Assembly: GCA_965228735.1 (NCBI GenBank)
Contig: OZ245838.1
Span: 3,424,001-3,488,000, forward strand
Source of the DNA: Planctomycetota bacterium
GTDB lineage: Bacteria; Planctomycetota; UBA1135; UBA2386
Reading direction: 5' to 3'
DNA length: 64,000 nt
The position numbers and the translations under genes are program-made. The notes below the pieces were generated by a model that saw nothing but the letters and a program-made list of their open reading frames with translations, had not been told where the DNA came from and searched no databases. This document shows, piece after piece, positions 60,441 to 62,151 of the stretch; position 1 is the first letter of the stretch; every line of letters starts with the position of its first letter.

Positions 60441-61697
60441 ATGCTGACCGTGGTGCCCATTCTCCTGACTTCGGCCCTCGCGGTGCCCACGCCGCAGGGA
60501 CCGTCACAGGGACCGTCGCAGGCGAGCCCGGATCCACAGTTCGTCGCCTGGCGGGATCACATCGTGCCAACGGTCGCGGAGTGGCGCTGGCAGCAGATCG
60601 ACTGGCGGCCGACGCTCGGGGCCGGCCTGCGCGCCGCCGCGGCAGCCAGGAAGCCGCTGTTGCTCTGGCTCATGAACGGCCACCCGCTCGGCTGCACTTG
60701 AGGCAACGGAGTCCGGGACCGGCGGGTCTGGTCCGACGAACGACTGCAGGAGCTGGCCACGAACTTCGTGCCCGCGGCCGACGAGGTGTGGCGGCTGCAG
60801 CGCGACGACGAACCGGAGTGCCGCTGGTTCCGCGAAGCCGTGCGCGGTGACCGCTTGCCGAGCCGCGGCTCGATGCAGGGCACCTACGTGCTCACGCCGG
60901 GCGGCGAATGCCTCGGCCGGATCAACTCGGGTGATCCGGAGAAGGTCGCCAGCATGCTCACGGCGGCGCTGACGAAGTGGCGCGCGCGACCGGCGCCCGA
61001 CGATGCCGACGCTGCGGCACCACCGCCGGCCCCGGGTCATCGCTGGGAGCAGAGCTACCCCTCGGACGGTCTCGTGCTCGAACGCTTCGCGCGCGACGTC
61101 GGCGCGGCCCCCACCGAGGAACCGCGTCGCCCGGTGAATCGCGACGCCGTGTGGTTCAGTGCCGAGGAAGCGACCGGCTGGCTGCCCGGCGAGCCCGAGG
61201 TCGGGCAGAAGGGCAAGGTCGCGCCGATCGTCGTCCTGCGTCTCGCACGCACCGCGTTCGTCGACAACGTGCGCGGCCAGACGCTACCGTTCGCCGCCGC
61301 CGAGATCGATCGCGCCGATCTGCTCTACACGGTGCGCGCGGTGGACGACGAGCACGTCGCGTTCGAACTGCGCGGCACCACCCGGGCGGAGGCCGGGGGT
61401 CCGTGGCTCGGCGGCGAGTCCTACTGGCGACCCAAGCGCGAGTGGCCACGATCGCTCGCCACGGGCATGCGCGGTCACGCCATCTGGGATCGCACCGCGC
61501 GCCGGTTCGTCGCGTTCGAGCTCGTCGCGCTCGGCACGCGCCGCGGCCGCACGGCGTTCAACGGTCGCGCGCGCGAAGAGGCCGCGAGCATGCACCGCAT
61601 CGGGTTCGCGCTCCGACTCGCGCCGGCAGAGTTCCGCGTCGCACCGACGTTCGTGAACGTCTACGACGCGGACTGGGTCACGCACCCGGCGAAGTAG
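60441..61697 (+). CDS. Putative selenoprotein, SelN-like thioredoxin fold (CxU), UGA 60699-60701 read as Sec
   Basis: ORFs 60441-60701 and 60768-61697 are in the same frame, separated only by TGA. Readthrough gives 'KPLLLWLMNGHPLGCT-U-GNGVRDRRVWSD'. Downstream hairpin and signal peptide present. Confidence 0.8.
60711..60737 (+). promoter_or_regulatory. Bacterial SECIS-like hairpin
   Basis: GGACCGG-(CGGGT)-CTGGTCC with outer GTC/GAC pair. The loop starts 21 nt after the UGA, with G at loop position 2. Confidence 0.65.
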
Positions 61698-61734
61698 TCC
61701 AACGCCGGGTGGCACCCGCCAGGCATCGACCGCC

Positions 61735-62151
61735 TCAGCGGCCGAGCACCTGTTGGATCGCCTTGGTCACACCAGCCTCGGTCTGGTTGTGACCCGACTC
61801 CTTCCACAGCAACTTCCCCTCGGCGTCGGTAATCACCATCCCGTGGATGTTGAGCTCGTGCTTGGCGATCAACGCCTGCGACTCGTCGGTGTAGTGCTCG
61901 AGCACCTGGAACTTCATGGCATCACCGAACTGCGTTTCGAGCCCATTCACGATGGGCACCACTGCACCGCAGCGCGGTCAATTCTCCATGTTGATGTAGG
62001 TGAGGATCGGCATCGCGCCGGCCTTCGGCTTCTCGCCGGCCTCCGCGATGTTGGAACCGGCATCCGCCGGGTCGGACTTCGGCGTCTCGCTCGTGCAGCC
62101 GAATGTCACGGCACAGAGCGCGGTCAACGCCAGGATGAGGATGAGTCGCAT
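61735..62151 (-). CDS. Putative selenoprotein, thioredoxin-like lipoprotein (UxxC), UGA 61980-61978 read as Sec
   Basis: ORFs 61978-62253 and 61735-61962 are in frame. Readthrough gives 'ILTYINMEN-U-PRC-GAVVPIVNGLE', 138 aa from ATG 62151, with lipobox TFGC. Confidence 0.85.
61941..61957 (-). promoter_or_regulatory. Bacterial SECIS-like hairpin
   Basis: The mRNA reads GCCCAU-(CGUGA)-AUGGGC. The loop starts 26 nt after the UGA, with G at loop position 2. Confidence 0.6.

Follow-up and report, generated by a model that had tools for sequence, protein, structure and literature searches.

What is encoded by a short minus-strand gene that is interrupted, in frame, by a TGA codon, close to one end of the 64,000-nucleotide stretch of Planctomycetota DNA analysed here (the window)? 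An earlier note on this DNA had proposed that the codon is read as selenocysteine (Sec) and that the product is a membrane-anchored thioredoxin-like oxidoreductase. The reading frame runs from an ATG at 62151 to a TGA stop at 61737-61735 on the minus strand, and a single internal TGA, at 61980-61978, is followed by CCG CGC TGC, which gives U58-P-R-C61 and confirms the U-P-R-C motif of the earlier note. A standard ORF finder breaks the gene into one piece that stops at this TGA and a 75-residue piece that begins at a GTG start. Third-position GC content is of the coding type on both sides of the codon (GC3 0.89 and 0.86), and homologs can be aligned over both halves of the gene. An error in sequencing or assembly was ruled out as the origin of the TGA, as contigs from all four public runs that cover it (4/4) agree with zero differences; one of these runs represents a strain that differs at nine other sites and has the TGA unchanged, and two are near-identical and possibly the source. 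A scan of the locus for sigma-70 promoters and terminators gave zero matches. Among the sequencing runs listed as containing the stretch there is no RNA run, a result that does not bear on expression.

Table 1. Features of the gene, in coordinates of the window
Feature	Residues	Position	Strand	Remarks
Whole gene		61735..62151	(-)	138 codons plus stop if the internal TGA is Sec
Predicted lipoprotein signal peptide	1-19	62095..62151	(-)	Ends at Cys19
Low-complexity linker	20-46	62014..62094	(-)	Length and sequence vary among homologs
Thioredoxin-fold domain	47-138	61738..62013	(-)	Minimal fold, no insertions; 92 residues
TGA of Sec58, first position of UxxC	58	61978..61980	(-)	TGA in 79/81 homologs, TGC/TGT in 2
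Cys61, second position of UxxC	61	61969..61971	(-)	Invariant, 81/81
Bacterial SECIS hairpin		61941..61957	(-)	6-bp stem, 5-nt loop, G-U at loop positions 2-3
His103, cis-proline position	103	61843..61845	(-)	His in 79/81; Pro in 5/5 outgroup thioredoxins
His121, after last strand	121	61789..61791	(-)	His in 81/81; Phe/Met in 5/5 outgroup sequences

Comparison with relatives supports the proposed readthrough. Among 81 non-redundant Planctomycetota homologs (the sequences of at least 45 bits among all loci fetched, with the lower-scoring L130 and L122 excluded), the U58 column holds TGA in 79 and a Cys codon in two, and exactly one TGA is present in every class-level match (71/71). The earlier note had suggested a search for Cys homologs that span both halves, and these were found, both here (2/81) and as 53 full-length CxxC domains in the best 150 hits of a wider profile search. 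Loss of the Sec machinery as the route from Sec to Cys was ruled out, since the Cys-form genomes tested (G028 and G104) both retain SelA and SelB. In a quick tree (98 columns, with long branches and many open forks, and so indicative), five Cys rows scatter over three places.

The alternative that the TGA is a true stop, either between two small genes or in a pseudogene, or that it is read as Trp through an alternative code, is very improbable and has been largely refuted. In its favour, databases hold the downstream half separately (78 C-terminal fragments in the best 150 hits), five entries have W at the Sec position, and a GTG lies ten codons past the TGA in 58 of the 79 TGA genes. However, the database fragments begin at differing, scattered positions, and the GTG is the SECIS loop, with GTC or ATC in its place in 9 of 46 genes. 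The downstream 75 residues therefore do not stand as an independent protein, which the earlier note had named as the outcome that would overturn its reading; the database copies are fragments made by gene callers. Furthermore, in 79 genes the TGA takes the very position of the catalytic Cys, where it alternates with Cys codons, and the two halves jointly form one domain. As TGA also serves as the terminal stop in 38 of the 81 members, this gene among them, a code in which TGA means Trp is excluded. The five W entries (P0022, P0028, P0036, P0071 and P0077), all on short contigs, are best read as cases where gene callers apparently translated TGA as Trp, because one of them clusters with a 44-residue N-terminal half that ends at the Sec position and because of the terminal TGA stops just mentioned.

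The SECIS-like hairpin claimed by the earlier note (6 bp, 20 nt 3' of the TGA) is indeed there. Its stem begins 21 nt past the TGA (a 20-nt spacer) and its loop, CGUGA, begins 27 nt past the UGA (26 nt spacing), with an energy of -11.0 kcal/mol. The published bacterial SECIS consensus comprises a 3-9 nt loop, a 4-16 bp stem, a G in the first two loop positions, a distance of 16-37 nt from the UGA and a minimum free energy of at most -7.5 kcal/mol (PMC13188914), and the hairpin agrees with it in loop, stem, G, spacing and energy. Taken by itself the hairpin is marginal (z -2.28; 4/200 shuffles as good; 5.9% of 1000 synonymous recodings fold equally well). At the level of the family, the SECIS is real, far beyond chance. 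In fixed register the hairpin is the local minimum-energy structure in 45 of 46 TGA genes, whereas 300 synonymous recodings gave on average 3.7 such genes and never more than 9; this answers the check at synonymous sites that the earlier note had proposed. The loop reads G then U in 45 of the 46, and the two Cys genes tested are without the hairpin. Over the larger set, the three inner pairs and the loop are kept in 74 of 79 TGA genes and absent in five, and the outer three stem pairs are frequently broken. The covariation score is 0.574 against 0.233 for shuffled and at most 0.132 for slid alignments (27 sequences), and two inner pairs show 11 double changes each, these and the hairpin counts being inflated by relatedness, as kin are not independent. 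The double changes exchange Ile/Met-Val-Asn/His/Asp for Ala-Val-Ser/Gly/Arg; such paired amino-acid changes keep the RNA pairs, and they illustrate clearly how the structure of an RNA can constrain a helix of the protein.

The machinery for Sec insertion is present in the host, whose genome (one contig, 93% complete) encodes tRNA-SeC together with SelA, SelB and SelD, all above curated cut-offs, SelD carrying one in-frame TGA of its own. SelA occurs in 41 of the 42 phylum genomes that have a TGA member, the exception (G246) being 84% complete, and in 288 of 401 sampled Planctomycetota genomes; Sec use therefore looks widespread in the phylum, for the most part in lineages not yet cultured. With codon, SECIS and machinery in agreement, we regard it as almost certain that the internal TGA is decoded as Sec.

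The fold of the protein was addressed by structure prediction, as the earlier note had recommended, and the AlphaFold model of the domain (pLDDT 97.1, pTM 0.88) is a thioredoxin fold. Its elements run strand, helix, strand, helix, strand, strand, helix, and the position of the TGA codon lies past a strand, where a helix begins, which bears out the earlier assignment to the thioredoxin CxxC site. A four-stranded sheet, three helices and a CxxC at the start of helix 1 are all present. The best matches by Foldseek and VIA-align are thioredoxins (TM ~0.8, Z 12-14, rmsd 1.6-2.1, 88-90 residues; for example 2e0q, with Z 12.8, rmsd 1.9 and 89 aligned), and a profile search of solved sequences also put thioredoxins at the top. 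TrxA shares the fold with the family (TM ~0.8, rmsd ~2 Å over 88-90 residues) at 10-22% identity; the family is without WCGPC, the cis-proline and the N-terminal strand and helix of TrxA, which is cytoplasmic, whereas the family is predicted to be exported.

The leader consists of M-R and a hydrophobic stretch with T-F-G-C at its end. The lipobox at Cys19 held up, in that this Cys is at least 90% conserved in an alignment of 21 homologs (A1), with a lipobox that is loose in the query; by a crude pattern, 70 of the 81 homologs have a lipobox-like leader. The protein is thus predicted, from its sequence, to be exported, membrane-anchored and periplasmic, and a Sec-containing thioredoxin-fold lipoprotein, predicted to be exported and tethered, is very likely. 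By established knowledge of such proteins, SelB on the hairpin would deliver Sec-tRNA to the UGA, the leader would be cleaved and Cys19 lipidated, and the domain would hang on a flexible linker outside the cytoplasm.

What would such a protein do? The earlier note had seen that the usual cis-proline appeared to be replaced, and this is the case, the residue there being His103 (79/81, with one Lys and one Ser as exceptions and Pro in none of the 81). In the AlphaFold model a strand begins at Gly104, which fits His103 at the cis-proline position; one HMM alignment sets Gly104, not His103, opposite the proline. His103 and His121 are as conserved as the cysteines, and 12 of the 53 CxxC domains in the best 150 hits are without one or both. 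Judged from the fold, His121 probably sits on the third of the loops turned towards the thioredoxin active site, and by known thioredoxin architecture the loops of His103 and His121 should both border that site. A conserved His at the cis-proline site, together with a second invariant His, points as much to metal binding as to an oxidoreductase.

In human thioredoxin, a Pro-to-His change reportedly raises copper binding, and the His of Sco is said to occupy the cis-proline place, both points being attributed to Su et al. 2007. The family offers a natural experiment on whether the thioredoxin cis-proline is there to keep metal off the active site. The cis-proline is described as part of the polypeptide- or substrate-binding site, as more conserved than CxxC among Trx-fold groups (PMC2757866), and as a residue that may stop metals from binding to CxxC (PMC2757866, PMC3616962). 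The reading we favour, at a little less than an even chance, is that Sec58, Cys61, His103 and His121 together form a redox-switchable site for a soft metal such as copper; codon, SECIS, machinery, fold and residues were themselves established from the sequence and by comparison. Loss of the cis-proline would free the selenolate/thiolate pair for metal, and the two histidines would complete the site. The protein might then be a small Sco-type chaperone or a metal-site reductase, in which metal would be captured in the reduced state and later released, or the metal-binding cysteines of a partner would be reduced. More tentatively, and as something possible rather than probable, the family could be an uncatalogued group of exported Sec/Cys/His/His metallochaperones that carry copper, or a different soft metal, within the envelope of Planctomycetota, as a selenium-based equivalent of Sco. 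If so, it would provide a natural cis-Pro-to-His thioredoxin as a metal carrier.

Genomic context bears on this proposal in two ways. First, the Planctomycetota genes are mostly solitary, usually one per genome, in surroundings that are housekeeping and variable. Among the 132 ORFs that flank the 81 Planctomycetota genes, a Pfam search (E 1e-8) found no metal chaperone or transporter family, no oxidase-assembly family and no DsbD/CcdA-type electron donor; two DsbA-like neighbours, convergent, occur in two close relatives. A function based on an operon was rejected, as no functional neighbour is common to the members. Second, one Cys clade from outside the Planctomycetota set, homologous over the whole domain and with both His kept, includes fusions to HMA/CopZ domains (P0075, P0181 and P0182) and to DUF6370 (P0096, P0119, P0179 and P0180). 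At the one locus recovered for this clade, which is the whole of the genomic context for the metal-domain fusions, a MerR-family regulator and a cupredoxin-like gene lie directly downstream, both scoring below model cut-offs. The HMA/CopZ fusions and the MerR locus lend real but limited support to a metal role; the fusions are confined to one Cys clade and therefore represent one or two events. A plasmid search with an HMA fusion gave matches through the HMA part only. One further member has a His-rich tail and another an N-terminal Cys/His domain.

The DUF6370-like Cys-rich domain also occurs by itself on a lipoprotein as well as fused to the family domain (L132:179-682 and 839-1516), upstream of the MerR-family regulator and cupredoxin-like gene; a literature search for DUF6370 found no paper using the term. 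In P0141, the C-terminal half of the family domain is fused to an HbpS-like haem-binding domain.

An oxidoreductase role is also plausible. The protein could be a metal-free, extracytoplasmic Sec oxidoreductase (a disulfide reductase/isomerase, or a peroxide/sulfenic-acid reductase) in which the histidines would provide general acid/base catalysis or adjust the selenolate, much like the Arg of peroxiredoxins; we consider this a serious contender that stays somewhat below an even chance. The UxxC motif is intact in a canonical thioredoxin fold, the nearest named families of the domain are thioredoxins and glutaredoxins, and the fact that Sec has been retained in 79/81 members is in keeping with a gain in catalysis. 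The lack of metal genes among the 132 neighbours agrees with this reading too. Furthermore, the commonest form of the motif, U-P-F-C (28/81 members), is a glutaredoxin-like redox motif and, with the fact that most Trx-fold selenoproteins are taken as redox enzymes (PMC13188914), it argues against a metal site. Arg at the cis-proline position activates the peroxiredoxin Cys (PMC2757866). However, the same paper ranks the lost cis-proline as the more conserved element, dithiol exchange has no need of two invariant histidines, the DsbD/CcdA-type donor is absent from the neighbours, and the Cys clade has its HMA fusions. With its matched Sec and Cys forms, the family allows one to ask which of the two, catalysis or metal binding, is the reason for keeping selenium.

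It is unlikely that the protein is instead an enzyme for a small selenium-reactive or a metalloid/organometallic substrate (an organomercurial, arsenical, halogenated or sulfur compound), with histidines that bind the substrate in a deiodinase-like or MerB-like manner. Selenoproteins of this kind are catalogued (PMC13188914), the MerR-type neighbour scores best with a mercury regulator model, and for the fused HMA domains the top-scoring model is NF041115, that of a metal-binding (seleno)protein, both below cut-off. However, models for deiodinase, ArsC, MerB/SaoL or similar are unmatched, the 132 neighbours include no detoxification genes, and the gene is usually single copy in a stable chromosomal setting.

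Returning to the proposed metal site, Sco itself binds copper through two Cys and a His on a thioredoxin core that is membrane-tethered and extracytoplasmic (PMC5668878). Sco1/SenC (PF02630) is a works-like analogy only: it has in common with the family a tethered thioredoxin core, a Cys pair and a conserved His, but its motif is CxxxC, whereas the family has UxxC/CxxC throughout, two His and no Sco insertion, and does not lie beside oxidase genes. A search of the host with PF02630 found only its own Sco, elsewhere in the genome, HHalign of the family against this protein gave 0.2% with no sequence similarity, and Sco is absent among the best 50 structural matches listed. The host Sco has a His in the same loop, two residues earlier when counted from the hairpin Gly. 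We also observed that in the host (L131:1339-3315) the Sco-like gene immediately precedes a gene resembling cytochrome c oxidase subunit II. HMA/CopZ/MerP metallochaperones and metal-binding selenoproteins (NF041115, NF045683) are related to the family as fusion partners of the Cys clade and as a case of Sec in metal sites; their fold is different, and they are absent from the query protein and from the Sec members examined.

Known bacterial UxxC selenoproteins of the thioredoxin fold include Trx (PF00085), Grx (PF00462), thiol:disulfide interchange proteins (PF13098), SaoT (NF040730), TsoX (NF045809) and HUIPC (NF047660) (PMC13188914). With this group, the family shares Sec at the first CxxC position, a thioredoxin fold, a SECIS just downstream and Cys homologs elsewhere. 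Unlike the group, it has a lipoprotein leader, His for cis-proline and a second invariant His, its NCBIfam scores are far below cut-off, and its branch is separate from Pro-bearing thioredoxins: in the quick tree, the family forms one side of a branch against nine of these (SH-aLRT 99 over 98 columns, indicative). It is a real and widespread family of selenoproteins; the class is well known, the active site unusual.

Searches with the single sequence brought little: a Pfam search returned zero families, a word-indexed protein search one fragment only, and an exact-pattern scan of 185,579 genomes confirmed none of 56 candidates. A stop-tolerant genome search revealed the family, with matches in 57 of 401 phylum genomes. 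The domain profile used for the class and phylum searches (A2, 21 sequences) picked up 71 matches, spread over 69 of the 301 genomes of the host class, and 46 full-length matches (E <=1.5e-12) in 45 of 401 phylum genomes. Of these 46, 43 have one TGA and three have none; below them comes a gap in score, and then ordinary thioredoxins. Against 1.84 billion representatives, a profile search yielded 690 hits at E 0.001 and 116 at 1e-10; the best 150 include 59 full-length domains (the 53 with CxxC, the five with W and one AxxS), the C-terminal fragments already described and 47 short matches to unrelated multi-CxxC proteins. Named relatives of the CxxC and W types come from Verrucomicrobiales and Eisenbacteria, most being nameless; for the gene itself, the relatives that bear a name are in Planctomycetota records, the other titles being unclassified, 'Brocadiaceae' or one Luminiphilus bin. 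A protein atlas queried with a natural Cys homolog returned an unnamed cluster and thioredoxins.

Some members depart from the common pattern. L122 (G019), which is divergent, keeps the lipoprotein leader and the first His and has lost CxxC and the second His, and in L130 (G220), also divergent, CPYC and the two His are present and helix 1 is followed by an insertion. Two genomes carry two family copies each (G174:C10 and G540); those of G174 are ~3 kb apart among cobalamin genes, and one has Ser for the first His.

Is the family already catalogued? All members stay below the NCBIfam cut-offs (the best score is 25.7 bits, where NF047697 requires 140), 21 members all score far below those of the SaoT, TsoX and UXX-star models, and NF047660 and NF045500 have zero matches in the host. 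The query is without a Pfam match, and weak matches to Glutaredoxin or Thioredoxin models occur in a few members. Thus, no Pfam or NCBIfam selenoprotein model claims the family, and databases hold it as split halves. A 2026 catalogue of 119 families has several generic UxxC Trx-like rows; in the sections covered, no row is described with these features and Planctomycetota are absent (PMC13188914). No mention of the family was found in passages of deep-Sep, BSepDB and SelCysML, the BSepDB supplement including Planctomycetota genomes, and a literature search, with Haft and Tolstoy 2025 outside its reach, found no description of it. The family is apparently uncatalogued, though some of its members could already sit in a generic thioredoxin row; the generic rows that have no NCBIfam model include the PF13098 and cd02966 UxxC entries and BSepDB. 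In practice, annotation pipelines split or mistranslate its members.

Other genes in the window and in the genomes compared with it also have features of selenoproteins. The convergent neighbour (60441-61697, plus strand, 418 residues) has an in-frame TGA at 60699-60701 in a C-T-U motif and a hairpin with G second in the loop. Its TGA is common to a same-genus genome (L129) and to three host paralogs (C1 near 4855734, 6929375 and 7088096), and no Pfam or NCBIfam match was found; it is possibly another uncatalogued selenoprotein family. Elsewhere, this CTU selenoprotein gene adjoins the family gene in one same-genus genome only. Between the two selenoprotein genes of the window, a 9-bp inverted repeat (61683-61711) spans the stop codon of the convergent neighbour and may be a terminator common to the two genes, though none came up in the scan for terminators. 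Two Pro-bearing thioredoxin-like genes, L028:1519-1791 (+) and L034:1465-1902 (-), have an in-frame TGA at CxxC and a similar hairpin, and are of a known selenoprotein type. Finally, L014, L017 and L021 encode exported CIPC thioredoxins with a long Cys/His-rich C-terminal region of repeated motifs.
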